Shown here piece by piece: positions 3,496 through 62,395 of a stretch of 64,000 nt of DNA. Source of the stretch: Leucoraja ocellata. Lineage: Eukaryota. The stretch covers positions 4,526,001-4,590,000 of the forward strand of contig JAWMAR010000104.1 of assembly GCA_036785375.1 (NCBI GenBank). Direction: 5' to 3'. The notes under the pieces were generated by a model. It was given only the letters and a program-made list of their open reading frames with translations. It was not told the origin of the DNA and did not search any database. Position 1 is the stretch's first letter. Every line of letters begins with the position of its first letter. The position numbers and the translations under genes were made by a program.

Positions 3496-5671
3496 GGAGT
3501 TATACCCGTGGATAATACGTCTGTCTTGTTTACACTTGATGCCAATCAACAGAACGATGATCAGAAGAAAGACAGCGGAAGTGCAACTGAAAATGATGAT
3601 TAAGTAAACATTTGGATCAGAAAACCCCCCTGGATTTTTCACCAAGCTACTGCTTTCGGACATTGCTTCAGTGCTGTTCTCCAAAACTCTAATATTCATT
3701 GTAACGGCGCTGGAGAGGCCTTGGCTGCCCATTGTCCTTGACCAAGATGACCAGAGTTTGTGTAGTCGCATCTGTCTGCAAAATATTGCGCGCAGTTCTG
3801 ATTTCACCAGAATTTTGCCCAACGTTGAACAAACTGGGATCGGTAGATTTCACCATCTGATAAAAGAGCCGTGCATTCTGACCAGAATCTGCATCAGTTG
3901 CCATTATCTTGGCGACCAAGTGCCCTTGACCGGCTGACCGGGGCACAATCTCCTCTGTTGCTGATCCACCTTGTTCCGAAGGTGAAACAATTACCGGAGC
4001 GTTGTCATTTTGATCCAGTACGATCACATTCACCGTGGCGCTGCTACTCAGCGGAGGTACCCCAGCGTCACGGGCTTGAACGTGTACCTGGAAGTTTTTG
4101 AGATTCTCATAGTCAAACGAGCGCAGCGCATAAATTGTTCCGTTCATTGAGTTAATGTTCAGGTAAGTGGACACTGGCAAGTTTTTGACTTGATTCTCCA
4201 GAAAAGCGTAGGAAACATAGGAATTCTGCTCCAGATCAGGATCCGTTGCAGTTACTGTGAAAATGGACACACCCGGGGCATTATTTTCCATGACATAAAT
4301 GTTGTAGGAAGATTCAGCAAACCGTGGAGTGTTATCATTAACGTCTGAAATTATAATCTCAATGGTTATATTTGCGGATAGTGATGGCGACCCCTTGTCC
4401 CAAACTGAGATAAGTATTTTGTACACAGATATCACTTCACGATCAAACATTTCACTGGTAATTAATTTGTAATGATCCGTCGCTGATTGTAGTTTAAATG
4501 GAATGTTATTTGGGATCTGGCAGCGGACTTGGCCGTTCTCTCCAGAATCGCGATCCATAACACTGATCAACGTTACGAAAGTTCCCGGCGGAGCATTTTC
4601 CGGGATTTTGTTGGATGCTGATGTCACCTTCATCTCGGGTGCATTATCGTTCACATCAATTACTTTGATCAGCACTTTGGAGTGTCCAGTCATTGCAGGC
4701 GATCCGTGGTCCACAGCTTTAACATCTAGAGCATAGCTGTTTGCCTGTTCAAAATCCAAGGGCCCTTCAATGCGAATATCACCGGTATCCGGGTCTAAAC
4801 GGAACAAATTACGAGCTTTTCGCACGGCAACATCACTAAACAAATATGTTATCTTAGCATTCTGTCCTTCATCCATATCATTTGCTTTGACTTTCATCAC
4901 TAAGGTACCTTTGGTGGAGTTCTCGCTTACGCTTCCCCTGTAAATATCACGATCGAATACAGGCTGATTATCATTGAAGTCCAACACAGAAATGAGAATC
5001 TGAGTTGTGCCTGATCTCTGAGGGGTCCCGCCGTCAGTCGCAGTAAACACGAGTTGAAATGATGATTGCATCTCTCGGTCCAAAAATTTCTCCAACAGCA
5101 ATTCGGCAATTATAAACCCGTCATCGGTTTTCTGTGTTTTTAGACTAAAGTACGCACAGGAACTGATTGTGTAGGCGGCCACGGTATTTATTCCAATGTC
5201 AGCATCATCTGCGCTCTCGAGACGGAAACGTACACCGGGTGCGCTCGCTTCCGATATCTGTAGCACCATGCTGCTGTGCGGGAAAGTGGGCGCATTGTCA
5301 TTTACATCAAAAATCTCGATTTTTCCGCGATGCACCTCGGAAGGATTTTCCAGTATTGTTTCGAAAGATATAGTACACTTATCGTCCTGTCTGCAAATAC
5401 GTTCCCTGTCGATTCTTTCACGAAGAGACAATATTCCATTCTCCAAATTAACCTTCAGGTACCGTCCGCCATTATCAGAATTCAGTCGTAATTTCCGAGC
5501 AGACATTTGCCATACATTCAGCCCCAAATCCTCAGCGATATTCCCAACAAATGCCCCCTGCTCCATTTCCTCTGGAATAGAATAATGCATTTGCCCGGAA
5601 ATTAGACCAGGTGCACATTTCGTAAACATGCACACAAACACAGTGAAGGCAAACCTCGGTCGGTACGCCAT
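3496..5671 (-). CDS. Clustered protocadherin gene 1 (gamma-like); apparent 1-bp frameshift late in EC6, 3' end lost in gap
   Basis: ORF 3689..5689, true ATG at 5671 (MAYRPRF). Signal peptide, QMHYSIPEE, EC1 C-X5-C, DRE/DxNDN cadherin motifs. An extra C at ~3719-3720 (+ strand AGGCCTTGG vs paralog AGGCTTGG) shifts the frame; the TM segment (VYLIIIFSCTSAVFLLIIVLLIGIKCK) continues in ORF 3244..3822. Either a pseudogene or a consensus error. Confidence 0.85.
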
Positions 5672-5819
5672 TGTTCCGCGCTCAGTCAATGTCCAAAACC
5701 AGGCCTCTCCTCACGTAATCCGTAAAATGTTCCAAGCACAAAATTTAAATATATATATATAATCTAAATACAGACTCGGAACAGTCGGGATATTTTCCTC
5801 CTAACATGGATTCCGCAAT

Positions 5820-5990
5820 CCAAACGCAGGCACTGCTCTCCTCTCTCGTCGCGTCTGACGTTTTTATTCTGGGATGTGGGAGGGGCAATGGATCCATCTG
5901 TGCACTTGAGCTTCTCATTGGTGGACAGCGACACGGCCAGTTCTTTTCGACAATTGCAGCTACAATTCTTAAAGCTGCACTGCTCTCCTG
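5820..5990 (-). promoter_or_regulatory. Conserved Pcdh promoter with CSE/CGCT box (core ~5914-5940)
   Basis: Minus strand CTGGCCGTGTCGCTGTCCACCAATGAG, ~256 bp upstream of ATG; the ~165-bp block is conserved before all eight full-length genes. Confidence 0.8.
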
Positions 5991-8224: not shown

Positions 8225-8580
8225 TAAAATTATAAAAGGACTGGACAAGCTAGATGCATGAAAAATATTCCCAATGTTGGTTGAGTCCCGAACCAGGGGC
8301 CATAGTCTAAGAATAAAGGAGAAGCCATTTAATACTCAGATGAGAAAAATCTTTTTCACTCAGAGAGTTGTGAATTTGTGGAATTCTCTGCCATAGAAGG
8401 CAGTGGAGGCCAATTTACTGGGTGAATTTAAAGGAGAGCTCCATGGGCTCGTGAAATTAAGGGATATGGGGAGAAGGCAGGCACGGGTTACTGATTGTGG
8501 ATGATCAGCCATGATCACAATGAGCGGCGGTGCCAAAGGGCCTACTCCTGCACCGATTTTCTATGTTTCTATATTTCTAC
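8225..8580 (+). mobile_element. CR1/HER1-like LINE 3' fragment
   Basis: RGHSLRIK..MRKIFFTQRVVNLWNSLP-like coding remnant and TTTCTATG tail; same site as the 1140-1475 copy. Confidence 0.75.
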
Positions 8581-10413: not shown

Positions 10414-11089
10414 AAAATGCCCTCCTCACCTGAATCCAAACTACCACTTGCTATCGTTTACTCTATGCCTTCCCCGCGTTTTTATCTACCAACAACTTTC
10501 CTCTCCTGTACTCACGAAAGGCTCGACCCTAAAAGTTGGGCTGGTTGGGCTCCGCAGGTGCGGTCTGAATCGCTGATTTCCTCTGGTAAGTTGTGCACAC
10601 AATCTCAGCATCTGCCGTCACTTGTCATTCAAATATATGGGTTGATTTATTTCTTGCGCCAGCTATTTGTTCTTAGGCATTTCTGTACGAGCACGTATCT
10701 ACAATTCCAATGGAACGTATCATTACGCGATCGGGACTCTTTTCACCGCAATTTTCATACATTAATACTTCAACTTGTAACTGGATCCAGCCAATCACAT
10801 CAAACACGCAATCCAATAAATGGCAACTAATTAGTGCATGTTATCCAATGACCAGCAGAAGGTCTGCCGTCGGAATTAACGGACACAATTTCAAGATACT
10901 TTCATTCCAGTTGCAGGAGCAATTTATTTTTCACAATTACAACAACCGTACTCCCATAAAGCGAAAGAGAACAATGCAACAATGGAATGTGTTCTCAAAT
11001 ATTTCACTAGCACTGATTCAGATTCTTGCGCAGATAAAATGGCCGCATTATTTTTAATAGTGTTCCTTTATACTACACATCAGCGCAAT

Positions 11090-13474
11090 TTAGCTTTGAG
11101 CTTGAGAGGTGGAAGCGCCGCATGGCTTCAAGAAGAGAAAATCACTTTTCGCTGACTCTGGAGACAGACAGACCGAGTAATGATTCATATCTGCAACGCG
11201 GACTACCTGACCTGTCCCAGGATAGCGTAAAGTTTCCTCCATGGCAGGCCTTCCTTTAAACGTATCGTGAGAATCCCCACGATTGTAACAATAACTGCGG
11301 GAGTTATACTCTTGAATATTATTTCTGTCTTGTTTACACTTGATGCCAATCAACAGAATAATGATCAGAAGAAAGACAACGGAAGTGCAACTGAAAATGA
11401 CGATTAAATAAACGTTTGGATCAGAGAAATATTCTGGATCCACCAATAAGATGCTTGTATCCGCGATTCCTTCAGTGCTGTTCTCCAATATTTTAATGTT
11501 AATTGTAACCGTACTGGAGAGGCTTGGCTGCCCGTTGTCCTTCGCCAAGATGACCAGTGTTTGTACAGAAATATCTGACTGTAGGATGTTGCGCGCTGTT
11601 CTAATTTCACCGGAATTTTGCCCAACTTTGTACAAACTGGGATGAGTAGATTTCACTATCTGATAAATGAACCGACCATTCTGACCAGAATCTGCATCAG
11701 TTGCCATTATCTTGGTGACCAGGTACCCTTGACCCGCTGACCAGGGCACGATCTCCATTGCTGCCGATTCACTCTGTCCTGGCGGTGAAACAAATATCGG
11801 AGCATTGTCATTTTGATCCAGGATGATCACATTCAGCATAGCACTGCTGCTCAATGGAGGCACCCCTGCGTCACGGGCTTGAACTTGTATTTGGAAGTTT
11901 TTGAGTTTCTCATAATCAAAGGCGTGTAACCCATACATGGTCCCGTTAATTGCGTTGATGCTGAGGTAAGTGGAAACTGGCAGGTTGTCTATGTGTTTAT
12001 CCACAATGGAGTAAGATACATAGCAATTTTGTTCTATATCAGCATCCATTGCAGATACTGTGAACAGTGATGTACCTGGGGCGTTATTCTCCATCACATA
12101 TACATTGTAGGATGATTCAGCAAACCAAGGGGTGTTGTCGTTTACGTCTGAAATGGTAATCTGGATGGTTAGATTTGCGGAGAGTGAAGGCGACCCCAAG
12201 TCCCATGCCGAAATAGCTACATTATACTGAGATACCGCTTCACGGTCCAACATTTCACTGGTAATTAATTTGTAACGATCCGATGCTGTTTGTAGTTTAA
12301 ATGGTATGTTCTTTGGTAACGAACAGCGGACTTGGCCGTTCTCTCCAGAATCACGATCCATAACATTGATCAACGTTACCAAAGTTCCTGGCGGAGAATT
12401 TTCCGGGATTTTATTGGAAGCTGATGTCACCTGTATCTCGGGTGCATTGTCGTTTACGTCCATTATTTTGATCAACACTTTGGAGTGTCCTGTCATTGCA
12501 GCTAAGCCGTGATCTATAGCTTGAACATCTAGATAATAGACCTTTGTTTCTTCAAAATCCAAGTTTCCACCAACTCGAACCTCTCCAGTATCTGGGTCTA
12601 AACTGAACAAATTACGAACCTTTCGCACGGCGACATCACTAAAAGAATATGATATCTTCCCATTCAGTCCTTCGTCCATATCGTGTGCTTTGACTTTCAA
12701 TACCGAGATACCATTGGCGGAGTTCTCGCTTATACTCCCCCTGTAAATATCCTGGTCGAACACTGGTGGATTATCATTGATGTCCAATACATTAATGCGA
12801 ATCTGAGTTGTGCCTGATCTCTGAGGGGTTCCACCGTCAGTCGCAGTTAGCAAGAGTTGAAATGATGATTGTAGCTCTCGATCCAATGATTTCTCCAACA
12901 ACAACTCGGCAATTACAAACCCGTCCTCGGTTTTCTGTGTTTTTAGACTGAAGTGCTCACTAGAGCTGATTGTGTAGGCGGCCACGGTATTTATTCCAAT
13001 GTCAGGATCTTCTGCGCTCTCGAGACGGAAACGTACACCGGGTGCACTCGCTTCCGATATCTGTAAGGCAATGCTGCCGTGCGGGAAAGTAGGTGGATTG
13101 TCATTTACATCAAGAATCTCAATTTTTCCGCGATACACCTCCAAGGGATTTTCCAGAACAATGTCGAAGGGTATAATACACACATCCGCTTCTCCACAAA
13201 TACGTTCCCTATCGATTTTTTCACGGATAGACAACACTCCATTGTCAGCACTAACCTTGATGTACCGTCCGCCATTATCAGAGCTCAGTCGAAATTTGCG
13301 AGCTGACAATTGCCGTATGTTCAGGCCCAGATTTTGAGCGATATTGCCAACAAATGCCCCTTGCTCGGTTTCCTCGGGAATAGAATAACGAATTTGCCCG
13401 GAGATTAGACCCGGTGCATATATCGCAAACATGCAAACACACACTGTGAAGGCAAACCTCGGTAGGCACGCCAT
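11090..13474 (-). CDS. Clustered protocadherin gene 2 (gamma-like, single ORF), 794 aa
   Basis: Intact ORF: signal peptide, QIRYSIPEE start, EC1 CGEADVC, six cadherin repeats, TM, cytoplasmic YSVCLSPESAKSDFLFLKP motif, stop after SQAQS. Confidence 0.95.
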   Translation of the reverse strand: MACLPRFAFTVCVCMFAIYAPGLISGQIRYSIPEETEQGAFVGNIAQNLGLNIRQLSARKFRLSSDNGGRYIKVSADNGVLSIREKIDRERICGEADVCIIPFDIVLENPLEVYRGKIEILDVNDNPPTFPHGSIALQISEASAPGVRFRLESAEDPDIGINTVAAYTISSSEHFSLKTQKTEDGFVIAELLLEKSLDRELQSSFQLLLTATDGGTPQRSGTTQIRINVLDINDNPPVFDQDIYRGSISENSANGISVLKVKAHDMDEGLNGKISYSFSDVAVRKVRNLFSLDPDTGEVRVGGNLDFEETKVYYLDVQAIDHGLAAMTGHSKVLIKIMDVNDNAPEIQVTSASNKIPENSPPGTLVTLINVMDRDSGENGQVRCSLPKNIPFKLQTASDRYKLITSEMLDREAVSQYNVAISAWDLGSPSLSANLTIQITISDVNDNTPWFAESSYNVYVMENNAPGTSLFTVSAMDADIEQNCYVSYSIVDKHIDNLPVSTYLSINAINGTMYGLHAFDYEKLKNFQIQVQARDAGVPPLSSSAMLNVIILDQNDNAPIFVSPPGQSESAAMEIVPWSAGQGYLVTKIMATDADSGQNGRFIYQIVKSTHPSLYKVGQNSGEIRTARNILQSDISVQTLVILAKDNGQPSLSSTVTINIKILENSTEGIADTSILLVDPEYFSDPNVYLIVIFSCTSVVFLLIIILLIGIKCKQDRNNIQEYNSRSYCYNRGDSHDTFKGRPAMEETLRYPGTGQVVRVADMNHYSVCLSPESAKSDFLFLKPCGASTSQAQS

Positions 13475-17810: not shown

Positions 17811-20189
17811 TTAGGAGGTGGAAGCGCCGCATGGTTTCAAGAAGAGAAAATCGCTTTTCGCTGATTCTGGAGAAAGACAGGCCGAGTATTGATTAAGATC
17901 TGACACGCGGACTACACGTCCTGTCCCAGGATTGCGTAAAGTTTCCTCTATGGCAAGTCTTCCATTGAACGTGCCGTGAGAATTGCCAGGATTGTAGCAA
18001 TAACTGCGGGAGTTATACGCTTGAATGTTATTTCTGTCTTGTTTACACTTGATGCCAATCAACAGAACAATGATCAGAAGAAAGACAACGGAAGTACAAC
18101 TGAAAATCACGATTAAATAAACGTTTGGATCAGATAAATATTCTGGTTCCATCAATAAGTTGCTTCTTTCCACGATTCCTTCAGTGCTGTTCTCCAAAAC
18201 TTTAATGTTCACTGTGACCGTGCTGGACAGGCTTGGCTGCCCATTGTCCTTCACCAAGATGACCAGACTTGTCTGACTTACAGCAGTGTCTGACTGCATG
18301 ATGTTGCGCGCTGTTCTAATTTCACCGGATATTTGCCCAACTTTGTACAAACTGGGATGGGTAGACTTCACCATTTGATAAACGAGCCGAGCGTTCTGAC
18401 CAGAATCTGCATCAGTTGCCATTATCTTGGTGACCAAGTACCCTTGCCCCGCTGACCCTGGCACAGTCTCCACTGCTGCTGATCCACTATGTTCTGACGG
18501 CGAAACAATTACCGGCGCGTTGTCATTTTGATCCAAGATGATCACATTCACCCTGGCGCTGCTGCTCAGCGGAGGCATCCCCGCGTCACGGGCTTGAACG
18601 TGGATCTGGAAGTTTTTGAGATTCTCATAGTCAAACGACCGCAGCGCATAAATGGTACCGTTCATTGAGTTAATGGTTAGGTAGGTGGACGCTGGCGCGT
18701 TTATGACTTGATTCTCATGAAAAGTATAAGAAACACGCGAATTCTGGTCCAGATCGGGATCCGTTGCTGTTATTGTGAAAATGGACGCACCCGGAGCGTT
18801 ATTCTCCATAACGTATATGTTGTAGGATGATTCAGCAAACCGAGGGGCGTTATCATTAATGTCTGAAATTGTGATACTCATGGTTATATTTGCGGACAGT
18901 GAAGGCGATCCCAAGTCCCAGGCGGAAATAAGTATTCTGTACTCAGATATCGCTTCACGATCAAACATTTCGCTGGTAATTAATTTATAATGATCCGATG
19001 CTGTTTGTAGTTTAAAGGGTATGTTCCTTGGTACCGTGCAGCGAACATGGCCGTTCTCTCCAGAATCACGATCCAAAACACTGATCAACGTTACTAAAGT
19101 TCCTGGAGGAGCATTTTCTGGGATTATGTTGGAAGCTGATGTCACCTTTATTTCGGGTGCATTGTCGTTCACGTCAATTACTTTGATAAGCACTTTGGAG
19201 TGCCCTGTCATTACAGGTGAGCCGTGGTCCACTACTTCAACATTGAGAGAATAACTGTTTGCTTCTTCAAAATCCAGCTGCCCGCCAACTCGAATCTCCC
19301 CGGTCTCTGGGTCTAAACTGAACAAATTACCGACTTTTCGCAAGGCAACATCACTAAATGAATATATTATCTTTGCATTCTCTCCTTCGTCCAAATCATT
19401 TCCTTTGAGTTTCATCACCAAGGTACCATGCGGTGCGTTCTCACTTATGCTGCCCCTGTAAATATCACGTTCGAACACAGGTGGATTGTCATTGATGTCC
19501 AAGACAGTAATGAGAATTTGAGCTGTGCCTGTTCTCCGAGGGGTCCCACCATCAGTCGCAGTCAGAAAGAGCTGAAATGATGATTGTATCTCTCGGTCCA
19601 AAGATTTCTCCAACAGCAATTCGGCAATTATAATATCGTCCTCGGTTTTCTGTGTCCTCAGACTGAAGTACTCACTGGAACTGACTGTATAGGCGGTCAC
19701 GGTATTTGTTCCAATGTCGGGATCATCCGCGCTCTCGAGACGGAAACGTACACCGGGTGCATTCGCTTCCGATATCTGAAGGGCAATGCTGCTCTGCGGG
19801 AAAGTGGGCGCATTGTCATTTACATCACGAATCTCTATTTTTCCGCGGTACACCTCCAAGGGCTTTTCCAATATTATTTCGAAAGGAATAATGCACACAT
19901 CCGCTTCTCCGCAAATACGTTCTCTGTCGATTCTTTCACGAATAGACAAAATTCCATTGTCCAAACTGACCTTCATGTACCGCCCTCCGTCATCAGCGCC
20001 CAGTCGGAATTTGCGAGCTGACAATTGATGTACGTTCAGGCCCAGATCTTGAGCGATATTCCCAACAAATGCTCCTTGCTTCATTTCCTCGGGAACAGAA
20101 TAAATAAGTTGCCCGGAAATTAGACCGGGTGCACATATCGTAAACATGCACAGAAACACATTGAATGCAAACCTCGGTAGGAACGCCAT
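17811..20189 (-). CDS. Clustered protocadherin gene 3 (gamma-like, single ORF), 792 aa
   Basis: The ORF track starts at TTG 20207; the conserved ATG is at 20189 (MAFLPRF). Full domain set. A CAA->TAA change trims the last 4 residues (ends GASTS); 2-aa insertion in EC6. Confidence 0.95.
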   Translation of the reverse strand: MAFLPRFAFNVFLCMFTICAPGLISGQLIYSVPEEMKQGAFVGNIAQDLGLNVHQLSARKFRLGADDGGRYMKVSLDNGILSIRERIDRERICGEADVCIIPFEIILEKPLEVYRGKIEIRDVNDNAPTFPQSSIALQISEANAPGVRFRLESADDPDIGTNTVTAYTVSSSEYFSLRTQKTEDDIIIAELLLEKSLDREIQSSFQLFLTATDGGTPRRTGTAQILITVLDINDNPPVFERDIYRGSISENAPHGTLVMKLKGNDLDEGENAKIIYSFSDVALRKVGNLFSLDPETGEIRVGGQLDFEEANSYSLNVEVVDHGSPVMTGHSKVLIKVIDVNDNAPEIKVTSASNIIPENAPPGTLVTLISVLDRDSGENGHVRCTVPRNIPFKLQTASDHYKLITSEMFDREAISEYRILISAWDLGSPSLSANITMSITISDINDNAPRFAESSYNIYVMENNAPGASIFTITATDPDLDQNSRVSYTFHENQVINAPASTYLTINSMNGTIYALRSFDYENLKNFQIHVQARDAGMPPLSSSARVNVIILDQNDNAPVIVSPSEHSGSAAVETVPGSAGQGYLVTKIMATDADSGQNARLVYQMVKSTHPSLYKVGQISGEIRTARNIMQSDTAVSQTSLVILVKDNGQPSLSSTVTVNIKVLENSTEGIVERSNLLMEPEYLSDPNVYLIVIFSCTSVVFLLIIVLLIGIKCKQDRNNIQAYNSRSYCYNPGNSHGTFNGRLAIEETLRNPGTGRVVRVSDLNQYSACLSPESAKSDFLFLKPCGASTS

Positions 20190-38746: not shown

Positions 38747-41131
38747 TTAGCTTTGGGCTTGAGAGGTGGGAGCGTCGCGGGGCTTCAGGAAGAGAAAATC
38801 GCTTTTCGCTGACTCTGGAGACAGACAGACTGAGTATTGATTCAGTTCTGCCCCCCGGACTGCCCGGCCCGTCCCAGGATAACATAATGTGTCCTCCATA
38901 GCTGGTCTTCCATTAAACCTGCCGTGCGAAACCCCATGATTGTAACAATAACTAGGGGAGTTATACTCTTGGATAATATTTCTGTCCTGTTTACACTTGA
39001 TGCCAATCAACAGAATGATCATCAGAAGAAAGACCACGGAAGTGCAACTGAAAATGACGATTAAATAAACGTTTGGATCAGAGAAATATTCTGGATTCTT
39101 CACCAAGGTACTGCTTTCGCTGATTCCTTCAGTGTTGTTTCCCAAAACTCTAATGCTCATTGTAACTGTGCTGGACAGGCTTGGCTGCCCATTGTCCCTA
39201 ACCAAGATGACTAGAGTTTGTAAAGCAGTATCTGACTGGAAAACATTGCGTGCTGTTCTGACTTCCCCGGAATGTTGTCCAACGTTGTACAAACCGGGGT
39301 CGGTAGATTTCACTATCTGATAAAAGAGCCTTGCATTCTGACCAGAATCTGCATCAGTTGCCATTATCTTGCTGACCAAGTAACCTTGACCCGCTGACCG
39401 GGGTACGGAATCCACTGCCGCCCATTCACTCTGTTCTGAAGGTGAAAAAATTACCGGCACGTTGTCATTTTGATCCAGGATGATCACATTCACCGTGACG
39501 CTGCTGCTCAACAGAGGCACCCCGGCGTCACGGGCCTGTACATGGATCTGGAAGTTCTTGAGTTCCTCATAGTCAAAGGAACGCAGCGCGTAAATTGTAC
39601 CGTTCATTGAATTAATGGAGAGGTAAGTGGACACTGGCATGTTTTGGATATGATTATCGAGAAAGTAGTAGGAAAGATAGGAATTTTCATCCAGATCGTG
39701 ATCTGTTGCAGTTACTGTGAAAATGGATACACCCGGAGCGTTATTCTCCATTACATATACGTTGTAGGATGACTCCGCGAATTGCGGTGCGTTGTCATTT
39801 ACGTCCGAAATAGCAATCTGGATGGTTTTATTTGATGTTAGTGAAGGCGACCCCAAGTCACAGGCTGAAATAACAATGTTATACTCAGAGATCGCTTCAC
39901 GGTCCAACGTTTCACTGGTGACTAATTTATAGTGGTTCGATGTCTTTTGCAGTCGAAATGGGACGTTCTTTTGTATCTCGCAACGCACTTGGCCGTTCGG
40001 TCCAGAATCACGATCCATCACATTAATCAGACATATAAAACTTCCTGGTGGAGTATTTTCCTGGATTTTGTTGGAAGCTGATGTCACCTTTATCTCAGGT
40101 GCATTATCGTTCACGTCAATTACTTTGATCAATATTTTGGAGTGTCCTGTCATTGCAGGGGAACCGTGGTCCTGGGCTTGAATATCGAGAGAATAGCTGT
40201 TTACTTCTTCAAAGTCTAGAGGCCCTTTAACTAGAATCTCCCCAGTGCGTGGATCCAAACTGAATACATGTTGCACTCCTCGCAAAGCAACATCATTGAA
40301 ACGATATGTCAGCTCCTCATTCAGTCCTTCGTCCAAATCATTTGCTTGGACTTTCAGCACGAGCGTACCCCGCGCCGCGTTCTCGCTTACGCTGCTTCTG
40401 TAAATATCATGGTCGAACACAGGTGGATTATCGTTCTGGTCGAATACCGTAATCAGAACTTGTGTCGTAGCTGATCTCTGAGGGGTCCCACCGTCAAACG
40501 CAGTAAGCATGAGTTGAAATGATGATTGCATCTCTCGGTCCAAAGATTTCTCTAACAGCAATTCGGCAATTACAATACCGTCTTCGGATTTCTGTGTTTT
40601 TAGACTAAAATGCTCATTGTAACTGATTGTATAGGCGGCCACGGTATTTGTACCAATGTCGGGATCATCCGCGCCCTGGAGTCGGAAACGTACACCGGAT
40701 ACACTGGCTTCCAATATCTGCAAGGCAATGCTGCTTTGCGGAAAAGTGGGGGTATTGTCATTTACATCAAGAATCTCCATATCGCCGTCATACACCTCCA
40801 AAGGGTTTTCCAGTATAATTTCGAAACGTATAGTACATTGATCATTCTGTCCACAAATACGTTCCCGGTCGATTCTTTCACGAATAGACATGATTCCATT
40901 GTCCAAACTAACCTTCATGTACCGCCCTCCGTCATCGGAGCTCAGCCGGAATTTGCGAGCTGACAGTTGCCGTACGCTCAGGCCCAAATCCACAGCGATA
41001 TTCCCAACAAATGCCCCTTGCTCCATTTCCTCGGGAATAGAATAACGAATTTGCCCGGAGATTAGTCCCGGTGCACAAATCGCAAATATGCAAGCAAACG
41101 CAGTGACGGCAAACCTCGGTAGGTACGCCAT
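38747..41131 (-). CDS. Clustered protocadherin gene 6 (gamma-like, single ORF), 794 aa
   Basis: Intact ORF from ATG (MAYLPRF), six cadherin repeats, TM, conserved tail motif, ends KPRDAPTSQAQS. Confidence 0.95.
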   Translation of the reverse strand: MAYLPRFAVTAFACIFAICAPGLISGQIRYSIPEEMEQGAFVGNIAVDLGLSVRQLSARKFRLSSDDGGRYMKVSLDNGIMSIRERIDRERICGQNDQCTIRFEIILENPLEVYDGDMEILDVNDNTPTFPQSSIALQILEASVSGVRFRLQGADDPDIGTNTVAAYTISYNEHFSLKTQKSEDGIVIAELLLEKSLDREMQSSFQLMLTAFDGGTPQRSATTQVLITVFDQNDNPPVFDHDIYRSSVSENAARGTLVLKVQANDLDEGLNEELTYRFNDVALRGVQHVFSLDPRTGEILVKGPLDFEEVNSYSLDIQAQDHGSPAMTGHSKILIKVIDVNDNAPEIKVTSASNKIQENTPPGSFICLINVMDRDSGPNGQVRCEIQKNVPFRLQKTSNHYKLVTSETLDREAISEYNIVISACDLGSPSLTSNKTIQIAISDVNDNAPQFAESSYNVYVMENNAPGVSIFTVTATDHDLDENSYLSYYFLDNHIQNMPVSTYLSINSMNGTIYALRSFDYEELKNFQIHVQARDAGVPLLSSSVTVNVIILDQNDNVPVIFSPSEQSEWAAVDSVPRSAGQGYLVSKIMATDADSGQNARLFYQIVKSTDPGLYNVGQHSGEVRTARNVFQSDTALQTLVILVRDNGQPSLSSTVTMSIRVLGNNTEGISESSTLVKNPEYFSDPNVYLIVIFSCTSVVFLLMIILLIGIKCKQDRNIIQEYNSPSYCYNHGVSHGRFNGRPAMEDTLCYPGTGRAVRGAELNQYSVCLSPESAKSDFLFLKPRDAPTSQAQS

Positions 41132-41440: not shown

Positions 41441-43008
41441 CACATTTGATGGGATACAACCATAAAACGCCCTCTTTGAAAATAAACTTGAAGAATGTTT
41501 TTTTTTCATTTAATGTCGAAATTCACATCAGGCACGTCGGAAGTGGGTTATCCTCAGAACGTAAACATGTTTTGTCGGTTCAGTCAAAAGTCCACAACGA
41601 ATAAATAAATGGCATCGTTATTTTTATGATGCAACATATCATATCGGATATACAGTATTTGCTTACACATGTTTGACCCCTTACAATCACACCTTAGGGT
41701 AGTAAGAAAATATAAGAAGATAGCACAAAAAGCTAGAGTATAACTCACCGGGACGGGCAGCATCTCTATTCATATAACGACTACATAATTTCCCTACTTT
41801 GATAAAATTATTTCATTATCACTTTCCAAATTTTGGAGAAGGTGTTCGTGAACATAATACTTTCCATTGACCAATTGTTGAACCAACATCCTCTTTAAAG
41901 TTATTGCTGGAGAAATGCATCGTCACGTCCAATACAAGCCGAGTTTATTGACTTGTGCATGCATAGGACGCAGAGGTACGGCTGCAATGTAAATCTTGCA
42001 TGCAGCAGCTTAACAAGCACATAACTTGCTTGTTGTTGGAAACATCCATGGAAATGTTGTGATTTTTTGAATTCTTATTTAACATGAGATTCTATTTTTC
42101 TTTTTTCCTTTTTTCGTGATTGGTTGTGTTATTGCAATTTGCAACTAAATTACTGAATTGCCCATTAATTTGCAGATTTGTTCTCATTTTTTTGCCAATC
42201 CTCATTTTTACAATAGACGACGTCGCTTTGCATTTTCATTTCGCATCAGGATGACATCAGGGCATTCTCGTTCATCTACAAATGGAGACTCAGCCAGTTC
42301 TCCGCAACCTGTGCTATCCTCCACAAGAAACAACTGCGAAAAATCCCCTCCTCACCTGGATCCAACTACCACTTGATACTGTTTGCTCTAAGCCTTCTCT
42401 ATGCAGAACGGACCTCTCCACCAATCATGACGTGCTCGACACCAAACGTCATCTGTCTGTTTCTCTCCACAGGTGCTGCCAGACTCTCTGAGTTCCTCCA
42501 GCCAGTCGTCCTCACAATGTCAGCATCAGGCATGAGTTGTGTTGCAAAAAAATGGGCTTAATTATTTCCTTCGCCTGTTGGTTATTATTATATGTATATT
42601 TTGTGGCACGATCTATCAACAATTCTTCTAGAATACATGGGTACCCAATCATTAAACTCTTCAACGCAACTTCCGCACATTAGTACTTTCATCCACGTAA
42701 ATGGATCCAGGTACCCAAACCGTTACGTAATAGATTAAATGGCAACGCGTTTGTGCGCATTATCCAGTGACAAACAGAAGGACTGACTGCCTTCAGAAAT
42801 AAAACATGCAATTTCAAGATGTTTTCATTCGAGTTGCAGGACATTTTACTTTTTCAATTACAACCGTACTCCCATTTAACCGATAGAGAAAAACGTGCAA
42901 CAAGAGTAAGTTTTATAAATATTTCACTCGCAATGATTCGCATGCCCCGGCAGAAATAAAATGGCCGCATACAAAATTGGCCTTCTTCAATTTACGTATC
43001 AGCGTAAT

Positions 43009-43622
43009 TTAACATTGACCTTGAGAGGTGGCAGCACCACATGGCTTCAGTAAAGAGAAAACTCGTTTTTCGCTGACTGGAGACAGACTTACCGAGTATT
43101 GATTCAGATCTGGCCCGCGGACTGCCCGCTCTGTCCAAGAAAAGCCTAACATTTCCTCCATCGCAGATCTTCCATTAAACGTGCCGTGCGAAACCCCACG
43201 ATTGTAACAGTAACTGGGGGCGTAATACTCTTGGATAATATTTCTGTCCTGTTTACACTTGAAGCCAATCAATAGGATGATGATCAGAAGACAGACCACG
43301 AAAGTGCAACGGAAAATGACAATTAAATAACCGTTTGGATCAGAGAAATATTCTTAATTCATCACCAAGGTACTTCTTTCGCTGATTCCTTCAGTGCTGT
43401 TTTCCAAAACTAATGTTCATTGTAAATGTGCTGGACAGGCTTGGCTCTCCATTGTCCTTAAGCAAGATGACTAGAGTTTGTAAAGCAGTACCTGATTGCA
43501 AAATATTGCGCGCTGTTCTGATTTCTCCAGAATGTTGTCCATAGTTGTACAAACCGGGGTCGGTAGATTTCATAATCTGATAAAGGAGACGTGCGTTCTG
43601 ACCAGAATCTGCATCAATTGCC
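43009..43622 (-). pseudogene. Promoterless 3' fragment of a Pcdh gene (part of EC6, TM, cytoplasmic tail)
   Basis: Homology runs from DADSGQNARLLYQ to TSQGQC. There is a 2-bp deletion at ~43410 and an in-frame TAA at 43354-43356, and the tail motif is eroded (SLSPVSEKRVFSLLKP). At ~43622 it joins upstream intergenic sequence directly. Confidence 0.9.
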
Positions 43623-46314
43623 CTTCATATCACGACTACATAATTTTCCCTTATTTGATAAGAGTATTTCATTATCGCTTTCCAAAGTTTGGAGAAGGTG
43701 TTCGTGAATATAATACTTTCAATTGGCCAATTGTTCAACCGACTTCCTGTTTAATGGAAGTGAGGTTTGGAGAGAGGCATCCTCACGTCCACGTCAAGCC
43801 AAGTTTATTGACACGTACATGTATATGGAGCAGAGTCAACGCTGCAATGTAAATCTTGCTTGCAGCAGCTTTGCGAGCACATGACCCAGCAGACTCCGAC
43901 AGATGTTTTGGGAACATAGAAAATAGGTGTCGGTGTGAAGTTTGGCGCGGAAAATTTGTGAATTTTTGAATTCTTATTTAACTTAGGATTCTCAGTTTCG
44001 TTTTTTCTTTTTTCTTAATTTGTTTTATAACCGCAATTTGCAATGAAATTACTGGATTACCCATTAATCCGCAGATATTTTGTTCATTGAAAATACTCCC
44101 TAGTTAACATTAATCTCGTGGTACCACACTTAGCGTGTAAACAAGTATTTTTAGTGAACGTTAACAAGGTGGCCTAAAGTACTTGTAATGTGGTTAGACA
44201 ATTGAAGTTTAATTTCTGCTCCTCGAGTTTGCAGTGGATGTTCAACGTCATGCACGATCCCGGCAAAATTTGAATGGGACATGTTCTTCATGACGTAGAG
44301 GATAGAATCTCTAATCAAACTAAATGGTAATGTTCTCCATTGGTTGAAAATGTTGTGGAGATTTATGATGCCACACTTGGGTTATTGGATATCAATTCCA
44401 TATCATTCTCAAGTTAGCGCTGGGTTTCAATTTTTATATTCCATAACCACACAAAAGTTTTACAATTACTGAACCACGCGCTCCCCGCAAAAAAATCAAA
44501 TTGCAATGAAATTCAATCAACCGAATAATTGTAATAAAATCTGCAAAATAAAAACGCAAACAACACGAAAAACTACAGGTGAGATGATGGATAATTCCTT
44601 CCACCATCCAGGAAGCATGCTGTTTTCGCAATTTAGCAATTAACTGATAAGCAGTCAAAAGCGCAACAGTGTCATGTGCAATAACAACTGAAAATGCTGA
44701 AACACTCATCGATTCAGGTATCACCTGTGAAAAGAAATAAAATCAACATTTCGGGGCTTGGCTGCTTTATCTGAACGATGAATTATTTAAAAAATAGTTC
44801 ATTTTTCAGTAAGTTTAATGATGGGAAGTAAAGGAGAAAAAAATAGGAAAGAGGCTGATAGGACAAATTATGCTTCGTTGTTTCTGTGGTGTATGGCTAA
44901 TAGCAAGGGAATGGGACATGTTCAGGTTATTGAACAGACGGGGATTCCGTCTGAAATAAATTTGTTCTATAAAACTGAAAAGTGTGGACAGGGTCTCACC
45001 GAAGGCATATGGCACGGTTGTCTCCCTCAGCAGCGGTACTGAATGTAAGAGTCGAGGTGTAATATCTTTGAATAAAACATTGGTTAGGCTGGATTTGAAT
45101 TATTGTGTGCACATCTGGCATGCACAATATATAAGTTGTTGGGTTAAGCCAGATAGGTAGCAGGCCACACTCCAAAGTACGTTGCCAGGATGGGCAGGTT
45201 TACGTCATGAGGGGAGATTGTGTAGGCTAGAACTGCATTCCCTGGAGTGAACATAGCTGAGCGGTGCCATGACACAATCACGAGCGAGAGAGACAGGGTA
45301 GATTCCCACAGCCATTTCCAATGTTAGGGAGCTCCAAAACTAGAACATAAGTTTTAGGATCAGAGGGAGTACTTTTAAAGTCGGCCGGTTGGCTATTAAT
45401 TTCAGAAATACGGAATACGGCAGGTGGATTGAGATGTCAGTTTATGTGACGGAGACGGGAACAGTTAAATATGTAAAAGGTACATAATGGGAATGTGACT
45501 ATGTTGGGAATTGATGGACACGGAGTAAATGCTCGGGTGGAATTAGTACAGATAAACATGATGGTCATCGTAGATGCGATGTAACGAATGGTTTGTTTGT
45601 ATGATCTACACCTCGGCAAACATGATGCAAAACTAAACCGGAATGATAGCAGACAAGAGTGGCGATCTCAGGAAGTTTGCAACTTGTCCATTTGGAAGAT
45701 GAATGCTGTTTCTCAAGCGTGCACATTTGCTTTGCACTTGTTCCAACAGTGTTGGAATTCAGAGGCAAAAATAATAGACAGTGCGAAATTGTGAACGGAA
45801 GTGTTAAACAAACGGGGGGGAGATCAGTTTAATTCCTCCAGACTGTACGCACATGCTCTACAATGCAATGGCATAATCTTCTTGCAGTGTCTCAAATACA
45901 GTGTTACCACATTGGGAAGACCAAATACTTACATTATATTGACAGAAAGGCAAGCAGATCACTATTACACCGAGAATAATTTCGGGTCCTGTATGGTGGA
46001 AAAGAACTGGTAAAATAAACGAACGTTACACGTTTTCTGGTCAGATGACTACCATATAGCTCGATGAAAAAGTGTTACATTTGAACTGCTGAACAGACAG
46101 GGAAGGGGGTATCTACTCAGTGACGGAATTGTGTTTAAATTGAGGTAAATTGAATTAAATGTGAAAGTTAGTGAATGGAGGATTCAATAAGGAAATGCTG
46201 TCCTTGTTCCATCCAGGAAAGCGAAGATGCTGAGAACCGATCCCTTCCTGATTGCTGGGCGTGTTAGCAGTACCTTACCCAGAACAAAAAAAAACACAAT
46301 TTGAACCTCACGGT

Positions 46315-48443: not shown

Positions 48444-49472
48444 TTACTTTCGCTCGTTTTCTCCTCCCTTTCACACGTAATACATTATTCCATTCATACG
48501 TGGTCCTCACCTATTCCTTTACTTCCAAACTAAAGTCGTATCAATTTTTCATCAGTGTGCCAAACTGCCCGTTTCTCACTTTTCCCCACTTGTGCAGCCC
48601 AACATGCTCAGTGTTTCTAGTCTCACCACACATACCGCCCATCACTTTATCAACTTGTACATTAATTGCAAATGCTGATTTTAACCATGGATAACGTCGC
48701 GTTGCCTTTCCTCTCCACTTCAAGATGACTCAGGGGCTTTCCGATACATCCAAGAATGGTGATTCAGGCATTTCCTCAACCCAGGCTATCCTCACCAAAA
48801 ATGAACTGCATACAAAATCCCCTCCTCAACTGAATTCAACCACCACTTGATACTGTTTGCTGTAAGCATCCGCTCGTCTATTTCTACCAACCTCCTGAAG
48901 TCACGAAGGGCTCGACACCAACCGCCATGTGCCTCTCCGCTCCCCCCCCCCCCCCCCCCCCCCCCCACTCAGATCATTGAGTTCTTCTAGTCAGTAGTGC
49001 TCACAATCTCAGCATCTGCCATCAATTCTCTTTCAGATATAGGAGCTTAATTATTTCCTTCAACTGTTGATTATTGTTATATGTATTTTTTGTACCACGA
49101 ACTAACTACAATTCTTATAGAACGCGTGGGTACGCAATCAGAAAATTCTTCGCCGCAACTTCCCCTTATTAATACGTAGTGGATCCAGATATCCAGACAC
49201 TTTGCGTAATGAACTAAATGGCAACACGTTTATGCACATTATCCAATGACAGAATGACTGCCTTCAGAAATAAAATATGCAATTTCAAAATGGTTTCATT
49301 CCCATTTCAGGAATTTTTATTTTTGACAATTGTACTCCAATTTAAGCAAAAGAGAAAAAACGCAAGAAGGGGATGTTTTCTTCAAATTTCACTCGCATTG
49401 ATTCACATTACTGGGCAGAAAGAAAATGGCCGCATAAGAATAGGCATTCCTTAATCTACGTATCAGCGTAAT

Positions 49473-51857
49473 TTAGCATTGGGCTTGAGAGGTGGGTGCG
49501 CCGCATGGCTTCAAGAAGAGAAAATCGGTTTTAGCTGACTCTGGAGAAAGACAACCCGAGTATTGATTCGGTTCTTGTACGCGGAGTACCCTTCCCGTCC
49601 CAGGATAGCGTAAAGTTTCCTCCAGGGCAGGTCTTCCACTAAACGTACCGTGAGAACCCCCATAATTGTGAGCATAACTAGGCGAGTTATACTCTTGGAT
49701 ACTATGTCTGTCCTGTTTACACTTGATACCAATCAATAGAATGATGATCAAAAGAAAGACCACGGAGGTGCAACTGAAAATGACGATTAAATAAACGTTT
49801 AGATCAGAGAAATATTCTGGATTCTTCACCAAGGTACTGCTTTCGCTGATTCCTTCAGTGCTGTTCCACAACAATCTAATGTTAATTCTAACTGTGCTGG
49901 ACAGGCTTGGCTGCCCATTGTCCTTAACCAAGATGACTAGAGTTTGTAAAGCATTATCTGACTGCAAAATATTGCGCGCTGTTCTGACTTCTCCGGAATG
50001 TTGTCCAATGTTATACAACCCGGGTGCGGTAGATTTCATCATCTGATAAAAGAGCCGTGCGTTCTGACCTGAATCGGCATCGGTTGCGATTATCTTGGTG
50101 ACCAAGTACCCTTGGCCCGCTGTCTGGGGCACGACCTCCACTGTTGCTGAGCCAATTTGTTCTGAAGGTGAAACAATTACCGGCGCGTTGTCATTTTGAT
50201 CCAGGATGATCACATTCACCATGGCGCTGCTGCTCAACTGAGGCACCCCGGCGTCACGGGCTTGAACATGGATTTGGAAGTTCTTGAGTTCCTCATAGTC
50301 AAAGGAACGCAGCGCGTAAATAGTACCGTTCATTGAGTTAATAGCGAGGTAAGTGGACACTGGCAAGTTTTGGATATGATTATCGAGAAAGGAGTAGGAA
50401 ACATGGGAATATAGATCCAGATCAGGATCCATTGCAGTTACTGAGGAAACGGACGCACCCGCCGCGTTATTCTCCATTATATATATGTTGTAGGATGTCT
50501 CACCGAACTGTGGTGCGTTATCATTAATGTCCGAAATTGAAATCTCGATGGTTTTATTTGTTGATAGTGAAGGCGACCCCAAGTCCCAGGCTGAAATAAG
50601 AATGTTATACTCAGAGATCGCTTCACGGTCCAACGTTTCACTGGTGATTAATTTATAGTGGTTCGATGTCTTTTGCAGTCGAAATGGGACGTTCTTTTGT
50701 ATCTCGCAACGCACTTGACCGTTCGTTTCGGAATCGCGATCGATCACATAAATCAGGGATATGAAACTTCCTGGTGGAGTATCCTCCTGGATTTTGTTGG
50801 AAGCTGATGTTACCCTTATCTCAGGTGCATTGTCATTCGCGTCAATCACTTTGATCACAACTTTGCAGTGCCCCGTCATTGCAGGTGAACCGTGGTCCTG
50901 GGCTTGAATATCGAGAGAATAGCTGTTTACTTCTTCAAAATCTAGAGGCCCATTAACTAGAATCTCCCCGGTGCGTGGACCCAAACTGAATACATTTTGC
51001 ACTCTTCGCAAAGTAGCATCATGGAAACGATATGTTAACTCTGCATTCAGTCCTTCGTCCAAATCATTTGCTTGGATTTTCAGCACCAACGTACCCCGCG
51101 CAGCGTTCTCACTTACGCTGCCTCTATAACTATCATGATCGAACACAGGTGGATTATCGTTGATGTCCAATACTTTAATGAGAATCTGAGCTGTGGCTGA
51201 TCTCTGAGGGGTTCCGCCGTCAATCGCAGTAAGCAAGAGTTGAAGGGATGATTGCTGCTCTCGGTCCAACACCTTCTCTAACAGCAACTCGGCTATTATA
51301 ATACCGTCTTCGGCTCTCTGTGTTTTTAGACTAAAGTGCTCACTGGAACTGATTGTGTAAGCGGCCACGGTATTTGTACCAAAGTCGGGATCATCCGCGC
51401 CCTCGAGTCGGAAACGTACACCGGGTGCACTGGCTTCCGATATCTGCAAGACAATGCTGCTCTGCGGGAAAGTGGGAGAATTGTCATTTACATCAAGAAT
51501 CTCCAATTCCCCGTGATACATCTCCAAAGGGTTTGCCAGTATGGTTTCGAAAGCTATAGTACATTTATCAGTCTGTCCACAAATACGTTCCCGGTCGATT
51601 CTTTCACGAATAGACATGATTCCATTGTCCAAACTGACCTTCATGTACCGCCCTCCGTCATCAGAGCCCAATCGGAATTTGCGAGCTGACAATTGCCGTA
51701 CGTTCAGGCCCAAATCCACAGCGATATTCCCAACAAATGCCCCTTGCTTCATTTCCTCGGGAATAGAATAACGAATTTGCCCGGAGATTAGACCCGGTCG
51801 ACATATCACAAATATGCAAGCAAACGCAGTGAAGGCAAACCTCGGTAGGCACGCCAT
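49473..51857 (-). CDS. Clustered protocadherin gene 7 (gamma-like, single ORF), 794 aa
   Basis: The 848-aa track ORF starts at a GTG inside the promoter block; the paralog-conserved ATG is at 51857 (MACLPRF). Full domain set, ends SQAQC. Confidence 0.95.
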   Translation of the reverse strand: MACLPRFAFTAFACIFVICRPGLISGQIRYSIPEEMKQGAFVGNIAVDLGLNVRQLSARKFRLGSDDGGRYMKVSLDNGIMSIRERIDRERICGQTDKCTIAFETILANPLEMYHGELEILDVNDNSPTFPQSSIVLQISEASAPGVRFRLEGADDPDFGTNTVAAYTISSSEHFSLKTQRAEDGIIIAELLLEKVLDREQQSSLQLLLTAIDGGTPQRSATAQILIKVLDINDNPPVFDHDSYRGSVSENAARGTLVLKIQANDLDEGLNAELTYRFHDATLRRVQNVFSLGPRTGEILVNGPLDFEEVNSYSLDIQAQDHGSPAMTGHCKVVIKVIDANDNAPEIRVTSASNKIQEDTPPGSFISLIYVIDRDSETNGQVRCEIQKNVPFRLQKTSNHYKLITSETLDREAISEYNILISAWDLGSPSLSTNKTIEISISDINDNAPQFGETSYNIYIMENNAAGASVSSVTAMDPDLDLYSHVSYSFLDNHIQNLPVSTYLAINSMNGTIYALRSFDYEELKNFQIHVQARDAGVPQLSSSAMVNVIILDQNDNAPVIVSPSEQIGSATVEVVPQTAGQGYLVTKIIATDADSGQNARLFYQMMKSTAPGLYNIGQHSGEVRTARNILQSDNALQTLVILVKDNGQPSLSSTVRINIRLLWNSTEGISESSTLVKNPEYFSDLNVYLIVIFSCTSVVFLLIIILLIGIKCKQDRHSIQEYNSPSYAHNYGGSHGTFSGRPALEETLRYPGTGRVLRVQEPNQYSGCLSPESAKTDFLFLKPCGAPTSQAQC

Positions 51858-52004: not shown

Positions 52005-52175
52005 TGGAAACGCAGGCACTGCTCGCCTCTCTCGTCGCGTATGACGTTTTTATTCTGGGATGTGGGAGGGGCAATGGATCCATCTGTGTGCTTGAGCTTC
52101 TCATTGGTAGACAGCGACACGACCAGTTCTTTTCAACAACTGCAGCTGCAATTCTTAAAGCTGTGCTGCTCTCCT
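52005..52175 (-). promoter_or_regulatory. Conserved Pcdh promoter with CSE/CGCT box (core ~52100-52126)
   Basis: Minus strand TGCAGTTGTTGAAAAGAACTGGTCGTGTCGCTGTCTACCAATGAG. Confidence 0.8.
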
Positions 52176-52509
52176 GCACATTTAATGGTGTATTAAACAC
52201 CCAGTATAAAAATAAATTTGCAGGAGTTTATTTTGCATTTATCTTTAAAGTCACAGCAATCACGTCTGGAGTGGGTTATTCCCAGAGCGGAAACTCGTTC
52301 TGTTGGTCAGATAAAATGCAATAGGGAATAAGTAGATGGCATCAATATATCTATGATGAAGCATAGCATATCGGATATATAGTCGTTGTTAACTGATTTT
52401 GGAGCACTTATTGTTGTACATTATATTTATATAACGATGACATAATTTCCCTTCTTTGACATGATTACGCCCTTCCCAACAAAAATAATTTTCAAGAATA
52501 TTGGACCAG

Positions 52510-53715: not shown

Positions 53716-53799
53716 TTTAGCGATCAAAGGACGTCATGTTGAGTATTTCTTTGTCACTTTCTATATATTGCATAATGGATTCGGGAATATAATAGAGTC

Positions 53800-59691: not shown

Positions 59692-62076
59692 TTAGCATTG
59701 GGCTTGAGAGGTGGGTGCGCCGCATGGCTTCAAGAAGAGAAAATCGCTTTTCGCTGACTCTGGAGAAAGACAGACCGAGTATTGATTCGGCTCTTGCAAA
59801 CGGAGTACCCGGCCCGTCCCAGGATAGCGTAAAGTTTCCTCCATGGCAGATCTCCCATTAAGCGTGCCGTGAGAACCCGCATGATTGTAAGAATAATTGG
59901 GAGAGTTATAATCTTGGATATTAATTCTGTCCTGTTTACACTTGATGCCAATCAACAGAACGATGATCAGAAGAAAGATCACTGAAGTGCAACTGAAAAT
60001 GATGATTAAATAAACGTTTGGATCAGAGAAATATTCTGGAGTCTTCACCAAGGTACTGCTTTCGCCGGTTCCTTCAGTGCTGTTCCACAAAATTCTAATG
60101 TGGATTGTAACTGTGCTGGTCAGGCTTGGCTGCCCATTGTCCTTAACCAAGATGACTAGAGTTTGTACAACAGTATCTGACTGCATAATATTGCGCGCTG
60201 TTCTGATTTCACCTGAATGTTGTCCAACGTTGTACAAACCAGGGTCGGTAGATTTCACCATCTGATAAAAGAGCCGAGCGTTCTGACCAGAATCGGCATC
60301 AGTTGCCATTATCTTGGTGACCAAGTACCCTTGACCCGCTATCTGGGGCACGATCTCCACTGTTGCTGGGCCACTTTGTTCTGAAGGTGAAACAATTACC
60401 GGCGCGTTGTCATTTTGATCCAGGATGATCACATTCACCGTGGCACTGCTGCTCAACGGAGGCACCCCTGCGTCACGGGCTTGTATACGGATCTGGAAGT
60501 TCTTGAGTTCCTCGTGGTCAAAGGAACGCAGCGCGTAAATAGTACCGTTCATTGTGTTAATAGTGACATAAGTGGATACTGGCATGTTTTGGATATGATT
60601 ATCGAGAACGTAGTAGGAAACATAGGAATTCTGATCCAGATCGGGATCCGTTGCAGTCACTGTAAAAATGAATGCACCCGGAGGGTTATTCTCCATTACA
60701 TATACGTTGTAGGATGCATCACCGAACTGCGGTGTGTTATCATTAACGTCTGAAATTGCAATCTGGATGGTTTTATTTGATGAAAGTGACGGCGACCCCA
60801 AGTCCCAGGCTGAAATACGTATGTCATACTCAGAGATGACTTCACGGTCCAACGTTTCACTCGTAGTTAATTTATAGTGGTTCGATGTCTTTTGCAGTCG
60901 AAATGGGACGTTCTTTTGTATCTCGCAACGTACTTGACCGTTCGCTCCTGAATCACGATCCATTACATTAATCAGGGATATGAAACTTCCTGGTGGCGCA
61001 TTTTCCTGGATTTTGTTGGAAGCCGATGTTACCTTTATCTCAGGTGCACAGTCGTTCACATCAGTGACTTCGATCAGTACATTGGAGTGTCCTGTCATTT
61101 CAGGGGAACCGTGGTCCTGGGCTTGAATATCCAGAGAATAGCTGTTTACTTCTTCAAAATCTAGTGGTTGTTGGACTCGAATCTCCCCGGTGCCTGGTTC
61201 CAAACTGAAAACATTTTGCGCTCTTCGCAAAGCAACATCACTAAAACGATATGTCAGTTCCGCATTCAGTCCTTCGTCCAAATCATTTGCTTTGACTTTC
61301 AGCACCAACGTACCCCGAGGCGCGTTCTCTCTGACGCTACCTCTGTAAATATCATGATCGAACACAGGTGGATTATCATTGAAGTCCAGTACAGTAATGA
61401 GAATCTGAGTTGTGGCTGATCTCTGAGGGGTTCCGCCGTCAGTCGCAGTAAGCAAGAGTTGAAATGATGATTGTAGTTCTCGGTCCAAATATTTCTCCAA
61501 GAGCAATTCGACAATTATAATGCCGCTCTCGGTTTTCTGTGTTCTTAGGCTAAAGTGGTCACTCGAACCGATTGTGTAAGCGGCCACGGTATTTGTACCA
61601 ATGTCCGGATCATCCGCGCCCTCGACTCGGAAACGTGCACCTGGTGCACTCGCTTCTGACATCTGCAAAGCAATGCCCCTCTGCGGGAAAGTGGGGGAAT
61701 TGTCATTTACGTCAAGAATCTCCAATTCCCCTTCATACACCTCCAACGGGTTTTCCAGTATTGTTTCGAAACGTATAGTACATTGATCATTCTGTCCACA
61801 AATACGTTCCCGGTCGATTCTTTCACGAATACTCATGATTCCATTGTCCAAACTAACCTTCATGTATCTCCCTCCGTCATCGGAGCTCAGTCGGAATTTG
61901 CGAGCTGATAATTGATGTACACTCAGGCTCAAATCCACAGCGATATTCCCAACAAATGCACCTTGCTCCATTTCCTCGGGAATAGAATAGCGAATTTGCC
62001 CGCAGATAAGACCAGGTCGACATATCGCAAATATGCAAGCAAACACAGTGAAAGCAAACCTCGGTAGATACGCCAT
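59692..62076 (-). CDS. Clustered protocadherin gene 8 (gamma-like, single ORF), 794 aa
   Basis: ATG at 62076 (MAYLPRF; the track's start is an upstream TTG). Six cadherin repeats, TM, YSVCLSPESAKSDFLFLKP, ends SQAQC. Confidence 0.95.
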   Translation of the reverse strand: MAYLPRFAFTVFACIFAICRPGLICGQIRYSIPEEMEQGAFVGNIAVDLSLSVHQLSARKFRLSSDDGGRYMKVSLDNGIMSIRERIDRERICGQNDQCTIRFETILENPLEVYEGELEILDVNDNSPTFPQRGIALQMSEASAPGARFRVEGADDPDIGTNTVAAYTIGSSDHFSLRTQKTESGIIIVELLLEKYLDRELQSSFQLLLTATDGGTPQRSATTQILITVLDFNDNPPVFDHDIYRGSVRENAPRGTLVLKVKANDLDEGLNAELTYRFSDVALRRAQNVFSLEPGTGEIRVQQPLDFEEVNSYSLDIQAQDHGSPEMTGHSNVLIEVTDVNDCAPEIKVTSASNKIQENAPPGSFISLINVMDRDSGANGQVRCEIQKNVPFRLQKTSNHYKLTTSETLDREVISEYDIRISAWDLGSPSLSSNKTIQIAISDVNDNTPQFGDASYNVYVMENNPPGAFIFTVTATDPDLDQNSYVSYYVLDNHIQNMPVSTYVTINTMNGTIYALRSFDHEELKNFQIRIQARDAGVPPLSSSATVNVIILDQNDNAPVIVSPSEQSGPATVEIVPQIAGQGYLVTKIMATDADSGQNARLFYQMVKSTDPGLYNVGQHSGEIRTARNIMQSDTVVQTLVILVKDNGQPSLTSTVTIHIRILWNSTEGTGESSTLVKTPEYFSDPNVYLIIIFSCTSVIFLLIIVLLIGIKCKQDRINIQDYNSPNYSYNHAGSHGTLNGRSAMEETLRYPGTGRVLRLQEPNQYSVCLSPESAKSDFLFLKPCGAPTSQAQC

Positions 62077-62224
62077 TGTTCCGCGCCCCGTCAAATTCCA
62101 AGACTAGGCCTCTCTTCGGTTAATCCGTGCAGATGGTCCACGCACCAGATAAAAAAATCTTATATATTTCCAATCCCCCATCTAAACAGACGGGAAATGT
62201 ATCCTCCTCAGCTTGTTTCGGCAA

Positions 62225-62395
62225 TGGAAACGCAGGCACAGCTCGTCTCTGTCGTCGGGTCTGGCGTTTTTATTCTGGAGATGTGGGAGGGGCAATGGAT
62301 CCATCTGCGTACTCGAGCTTTTCATTGGTAGACAGCGACACGACCAGTTCTTTTCAACAACTGCAGCTACAATTCTTAAAGCTGTACCGCTCTCC
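62225..62395 (-). promoter_or_regulatory. Conserved Pcdh promoter with CSE/CGCT box (core ~62321-62347)
   Basis: Minus strand CTGGTCGTGTCGCTGTCTACCAATGAA. Confidence 0.8.

Follow-up and report, generated by a model that had tools for sequence, protein, structure and literature searches.

Self-terminating protocadherin genes of the skate Leucoraja ocellata and their probable place in an expanded epsilon subcluster

Introduction

A 64,000-nt stretch of the Leucoraja ocellata genome (contig JAWMAR010000104.1, positions 4,526,001 to 4,590,000; hereafter the window) carries a run of protocadherin genes on its minus strand, each ending at its own stop codon. This raises the question of which clustered protocadherins they are and whether their transcripts are joined to shared constant exons. 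Database labels read "gamma-C5-like," yet a Pcdh-gamma variable exon is spliced to shared constant exons, a feature that the array genes lack. Pcdh-beta genes of lobe-finned fishes and tetrapods are, like the array, tandem single-exon genes without constant exons. A third candidate is the epsilon subcluster, which was reportedly named in elephant shark by Yu et al. in 2008 and is said to have been described there as free of constant exons. Absence of constant exons does appear to define epsilon, as judged from GenBank protein lengths and from a published constant-exon tree. That tree lists alpha, gamma, delta, mu, and nu, and epsilon is missing from it in the available part of the source (PMC2764143). 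In a literature search, with most subscription journals outside its coverage, citations of the 2008 study were all that turned up on epsilon genes of skates or sharks. We conclude that the eight genes and one relic of the window very probably belong to the central part of a self-terminating epsilon subcluster that is expanded in rays and skates and whose genes probably have their own promoters.

Results

Gene content of the window

An ORF scan identified seven intact protocadherin ORFs of 790–795 aa, all on the minus strand: gene 2, a single-ORF epsilon protocadherin (11090..13474, 794 aa), gene 3 (17811..20189, 792 aa), gene 4 (24936..27323, 795 aa), gene 5 (32422..34794, 790 aa), gene 6 (38747..41131, 794 aa), gene 7 (49473..51857, 794 aa, with RNA reads of a related species along its whole length), and gene 8 (59692..62076, 794 aa). 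Each product has six cadherin repeats (per Pfam annotation of relatives), a membrane segment, and a tail of ~85 residues, all encoded in a single exon. ORF coordinates and endings (SQAQC, SQAQS, or SQDQC) bear out the preliminary description that all seven stop at a homologous site, with gene 3 stopping four codons early. The mature N-terminus given there, QIRYSIPEE, is exact or nearly so in five of the seven intact genes, but gene 3 has QLIYSVPEE and gene 1 has QMHYSIPEE. Among the 120 matches listed, the best database proteins to the window tail region are skate proteins (94% and 85% alike).

Gene 1 (3496..5671, minus strand), also of epsilon type, has a frameshift near 3720, and its tail enters a run of N (3296–3495) that masks the 3′ end. 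Its status as a pseudogene is unsure because the matching gene on contig C1797 of the same assembly lacks the frameshift near 3720, while having others. A decayed relic on the minus strand (42748..43625) retains a partial EC6, the membrane segment, a tail with its stop at 43009, and a 3′ UTR; EC1–EC5 and a promoter element were absent from this interval. Between the relic and gene 7 there is a GC-rich open frame of 166–211 codons and of no recognized kind (46423–47058, plus strand). Both strands of an abundant repeat (47757–48541) are strongly transcribed in each of the four RNA runs mapped.

Splice donors, polyadenylation signals, and promoter elements

The GT(A/G)AG donor word does not occur between the post-membrane KCKQ and the stop in any of the seven intact genes, as previously described. 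Each window tail contains 8–16 GT dinucleotides, and weak donor-like sites with two mismatches are present. AATAAA lies 152–190 nt past the stop in six genes, and its plus-strand form TTTATT was confirmed at six of six positions given earlier: a hexamer search placed it at 10923..10928 for gene 2, homologous signals of genes 3, 4, 5, and 6 are at 17634, 24769, 32229, and 38582, and that of gene 7 is at 49316..49321, all on the minus strand. The minus-strand variants described for gene 8 (AATATA, plus-strand TATATT, 59531–59536) and for the relic (AGTAAA, 42845–42850, 159 nt past the relic stop) are also in place. A further AGTAAA at 3143, past the N run, is not in the homologous place. Minus-strand AATAAA occurs in 3.7% of 45-nt intergenic windows (1489/40095), a chance level to be read with the six signals as homologous copies and hence not independent draws.

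All eight window genes have a CGCT element ~250–260 nt upstream of the start codon, at 52106..52120 for gene 7 and at 5920, 13725, 20443, 27564, 35037, 41370, and 62327 for the others (minus strand). This element has been reported in mammals and elephant shark (PMC2926608, available part).

Position of the array in the skate cluster

We mapped 1.46 Mb of the window's contig (3.646–5.110 Mb), described here in minus-strand order, 5′ to 3′. A large donor-bearing exon at 5.03 Mb and a last constant exon at 5.01 Mb are taken as delta from their position and from the best match of that constant exon to bony delta. The second donor-bearing exon, at 4.86 Mb, is the ortholog of epsilon1; its elephant-shark counterpart clusters with protocadherin epsilon1. 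The donor-less array follows at 4.67–4.37 Mb, with 35 EC1 and 37 EC6-membrane matches, and the window lies in its middle, with the ortholog of elephant-shark epsilon1 on one side of the run and that of mu8 on the other. Next come 12–13 mu exons, the last being the mu8 ortholog, and three mu constant exons (contig ~4204560, 4202450, and 4070330). A further 30–31 exons, with their own constant exons at contig 3701880 to 3655600, are taken as nu by position. The skate order matches the plan delta, epsilon, mu, nu reported in elephant shark (available parts of PMC2764143, PMC4978886, and PMC7811963). About 36–38 of roughly 80 loci in this skate's cluster, the largest share, are without a shared tail.

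Several features of the wider locus were recorded. The epsilon1 ortholog (contig 4863213–4865852) keeps a strong in-phase donor, and its tail and tree position are delta-like; a skate database isoform of it has two extra small downstream exons that match contig 4711019–4710864 and 4692977–4692915 and are unlike constant exons. Contig C1797 (1–199257) carries a second copy of the array at 96–100% protein identity, in which a three-gene unit including gene 8 is present twice, many frameshifts occur, and one copy of gene 8 reads through its stop; this copy is a second haplotype, a copy-number variant, or an assembly artifact. The first exon past the mu constant exons (contig 4050037–4052241) groups near delta and epsilon1 and apart from the remaining nu exons; at the membrane segment, its reading frame is broken. 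Near-identical gene pairs in nu (3873039–3938048) and mu (4310095–4351165), with end branches of 0.00–0.02, reflect either recent tandem duplication or assembly duplication. The first nu constant exon, at contig 3701880 (QPNADWHFSQA), is similar to the beginning of a lungfish constant region (QPNTDWRFSQA) that we take to be of gamma type.

Donors across the cluster

Loci with a membrane-bearing ORF were scored for an in-phase GT(A/G)AG at least 70 codons past the membrane segment. A donor is present in delta (1/1), epsilon1 (1/1), mu (13/13), and nu (27/28), and in none of the 31 array genes, three of which have the word elsewhere in the tail. Mu and nu exons equal the array genes in size and domain plan; unlike the array, they have these in-phase donors, three constant exons each, and other tails. 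Constant exons are found at lower coordinates, where the preliminary description had suggested searching, and they belong to mu and nu. A canonical poly(A) hexamer occurs 140–200 nt past the stop in 17 of 25 short-tail array genes and in none of the six 3′-most array genes; in the spliced subclusters, the same interval has one in 0/13 mu and 2/28 nu exons. A constant-region motif was found in none of the 120 relatives of the gene 8 tail listed (195 passed) and in all nine relatives of the skate mu8 ortholog.

RNA evidence at gene 7

Raw reads from a related species were mapped to the window, covering gene 7 and its paralogs. The list of loose ends from the first mapping was dominated by the repeat at 47757–48541, and the mapping was redone on 49000–49900. 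Gene 7 coverage is complete in three bulk runs, with a minus-strand origin in the two stranded ones, and reads of a single-cell run pile up at its stop and UTR. No splice joints were found on 49000–49900 among 274 reads from four runs. Loose ends place the poly(A) addition site at 49291 (minus strand), with five reads in one single-cell run and four in another of the same study (nine in total). The site lies 25 nt past the gene 7 AATAAA and follows CA; the DNA beyond is T-rich with six A in 20 nt, which argues against genomic-A priming in this genome. Among the 9 of 21 loose ends listed, the other seven all match array (epsilon) paralogs and none matches a constant exon. Six reads start at 49694 in one run of the first mapping; that run was absent from the 49000–49900 mapping, which has no loose end or joint there. 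In the related species, gene 7 is polyadenylated shortly past its stop and the reads give no hint of splicing, in agreement with the sequence-based description.

Self-termination might still be only the main outcome, with a minority of transcripts using weak donors to reach the mu constant exons ~370 kb downstream. The 8–16 GT dinucleotides per tail and the weak two-mismatch sites leave room for this, and our view of the RNA consists of loose ends of at least three reads each (9 of 21 listed). Paralogs are also pooled, because similarity is <90% for most bulk reads, and this leaves some chance of rare splicing. We consider it quite unlikely nonetheless: the conserved in-phase donor is absent in 31 array genes, and a constant exon or region is matched by none of the loose ends listed and none of the 120 tail relatives listed. 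Donor tallies, gene 7 poly(A) reads, and the mapping of the array together uphold the earlier view of a self-terminating, constant-exon-free, lineage-expanded set.

Descent of the ectodomains

In the 120 matches listed, epsilon8 and epsilon9 are the sole elephant-shark proteins that carry names, and their database clusters add epsilon6, 7, and 10–13 (all 796–827 aa). EC1–6 sequences were used for a FastTree tree of 121 rows, a quick tree of 52 rows, and a 26-row tree with AU tests; eight poorly aligned units were dropped beforehand, and three references have no full ectodomain. The named epsilon genes compared were epsilon1 and epsilon6–13, and five rows came from bony vertebrates, with inferred labels and no identified beta among them. 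Most matches in a search of 50%-identity representatives were fused or giant cadherins, and none was an identified beta.

The window genes and elephant-shark epsilon6/9 form one group with 100/100 support in the 26-row tree, and the window-epsilon clade has SH-aLRT 100 in the 52-row tree and FastTree support of 1.0 in the 121-row tree. Besides the window genes and elephant-shark epsilon other than epsilon1, this clade holds the remaining array genes and relatives from sharks and rays, with no bony-vertebrate row inside or beside it. The window genes nest among skate paralogs, then with sawfish and manta, then with horn shark, and then with other sharks; judged by sequence, this nesting is a ray and skate expansion. 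The short-tail branch of the window (ending SQAQC) is common to sharks and expanded in rays and skates. Epsilon1 lies near delta, apart from other epsilon genes, and a single all-epsilon clade is borderline rejected (p-AU 0.048); because epsilon1 groups apart and keeps its donor, epsilon is not uniform. The root of the jawed-vertebrate subclusters consists of open forks in the 52-row and 26-row trees.

A tree that joins the window branch to the five bony-vertebrate rows and parts it from elephant-shark epsilon is rejected (p-AU 1e-12). The ectodomain trees place the window genes with elephant-shark epsilon6/9, and the claim of gamma-like descent fails against rows whose subcluster labels are inferred. 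Gamma variable exons that lost, or sit far from, their constant exons would fit the "gamma-C5-like" labels, and gamma C4 is the best clustered match to the window among solved structures (EC1–4), with beta chains lowest. Elephant-shark mu8 gives the same ranking, and beta is also lowest for mu8 and epsilon9, so the ranking does not discriminate subclusters. With the rejected bony rows including a lungfish protein with a constant region that we take as gamma-type, we regard a gamma origin as highly improbable.

Discussion

Membership in epsilon agrees with everything that was compared: position, ectodomain grouping, and absent constant exons. In Callorhinchus milii, Pcdh-epsilon (ABV59319, epsilon1; ABV59324–ABV59331, epsilon6–13) likewise lies between delta and mu, falls in one ectodomain clade with the window genes, and has products of ~800 aa with no constant region. 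The epsilon6–13 ORFs (796–827 aa) stop shortly past the motif SPES.KS[DE]FL.LKP, as the window genes do. Window ectodomains are 54%–56% identical to epsilon6–13 with no one-to-one ortholog among them, and the skate has about 35–37 loci plus epsilon1 vs at least 13 named epsilon genes in C. milii. The preliminary description held that novelty would fall if the genes belonged to an already described single-exon subcluster. Pcdh-epsilon of elephant shark had been named before (Yu et al. 2008, PMID 18319338); the window array adds further members to it, and what is new is the ray and skate expansion.

An alternative is that the array is the cartilaginous-fish ortholog of beta, with a single loss of constant exons before sharks and bony fishes split. 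Both sets are without constant exons, and the open forks at the root of the trees give this idea some latitude. We hold it to be very unlikely. The array sits between delta and mu and is upstream of the mu and nu constant exons; beta, by contrast, is found between alpha and gamma (PMC2764143). According to the available part of that source, epsilon, mu, and nu are without orthologs in bony vertebrates, and beta is absent from elephant shark. No sequence affinity to beta appeared in our trees, which held five bony-vertebrate rows with no identified beta among them, and none of these rows falls inside or beside the window-epsilon clade. The tail motif had been read as beta-type. Bony delta proteins and PCDH10 show it no less plainly, which removes its value as a sign of beta; in mouse, alpha, beta, and gamma have all been described with a related motif (PMC4660814, available part).

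A broader conjecture, which we think improbable, is that on the shark side epsilon is beta's lost twin, produced by a single ancestral loss of constant exons, in the first jawed vertebrate, or by two origins, here from a delta-like exon. It would since have become the largest subcluster of skates, with copy number differing between the two assembled copies. The delta-like origin is suggested by epsilon1, which keeps a donor and sits near delta in trees.

Under the preferred epsilon reading, the array is a tandem run of about 35–37 single-ORF loci between the delta and mu subclusters, and the window genes stem from one epsilon branch that was duplicated in tandem again and again in rays and skates. 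Each locus is probably transcribed from its own CGCT-element promoter, and transcripts are probably polyadenylated ~180 nt past the stop, not spliced to constant exons, as seen for gene 7 in the related species. By analogy with the mammalian system, promoter choice may set the mix of isoforms in each neuron. The short-tailed products could then add ectodomain recognition diversity on neurons, as mammalian beta does, and may form cis pairs with mu, nu, and delta isoforms, which bear a constant tail.

The overall importance of these results is modest. They correct the database label "gamma-C5-like," extend the elephant-shark cluster plan to a skate, and, with reads of a related species on gene 7, add evidence for polyadenylation of an epsilon gene immediately past its stop. 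With the largest share of its protocadherin cluster tail-less, this skate offers useful material for work on whether neuronal self-recognition requires the constant domain.
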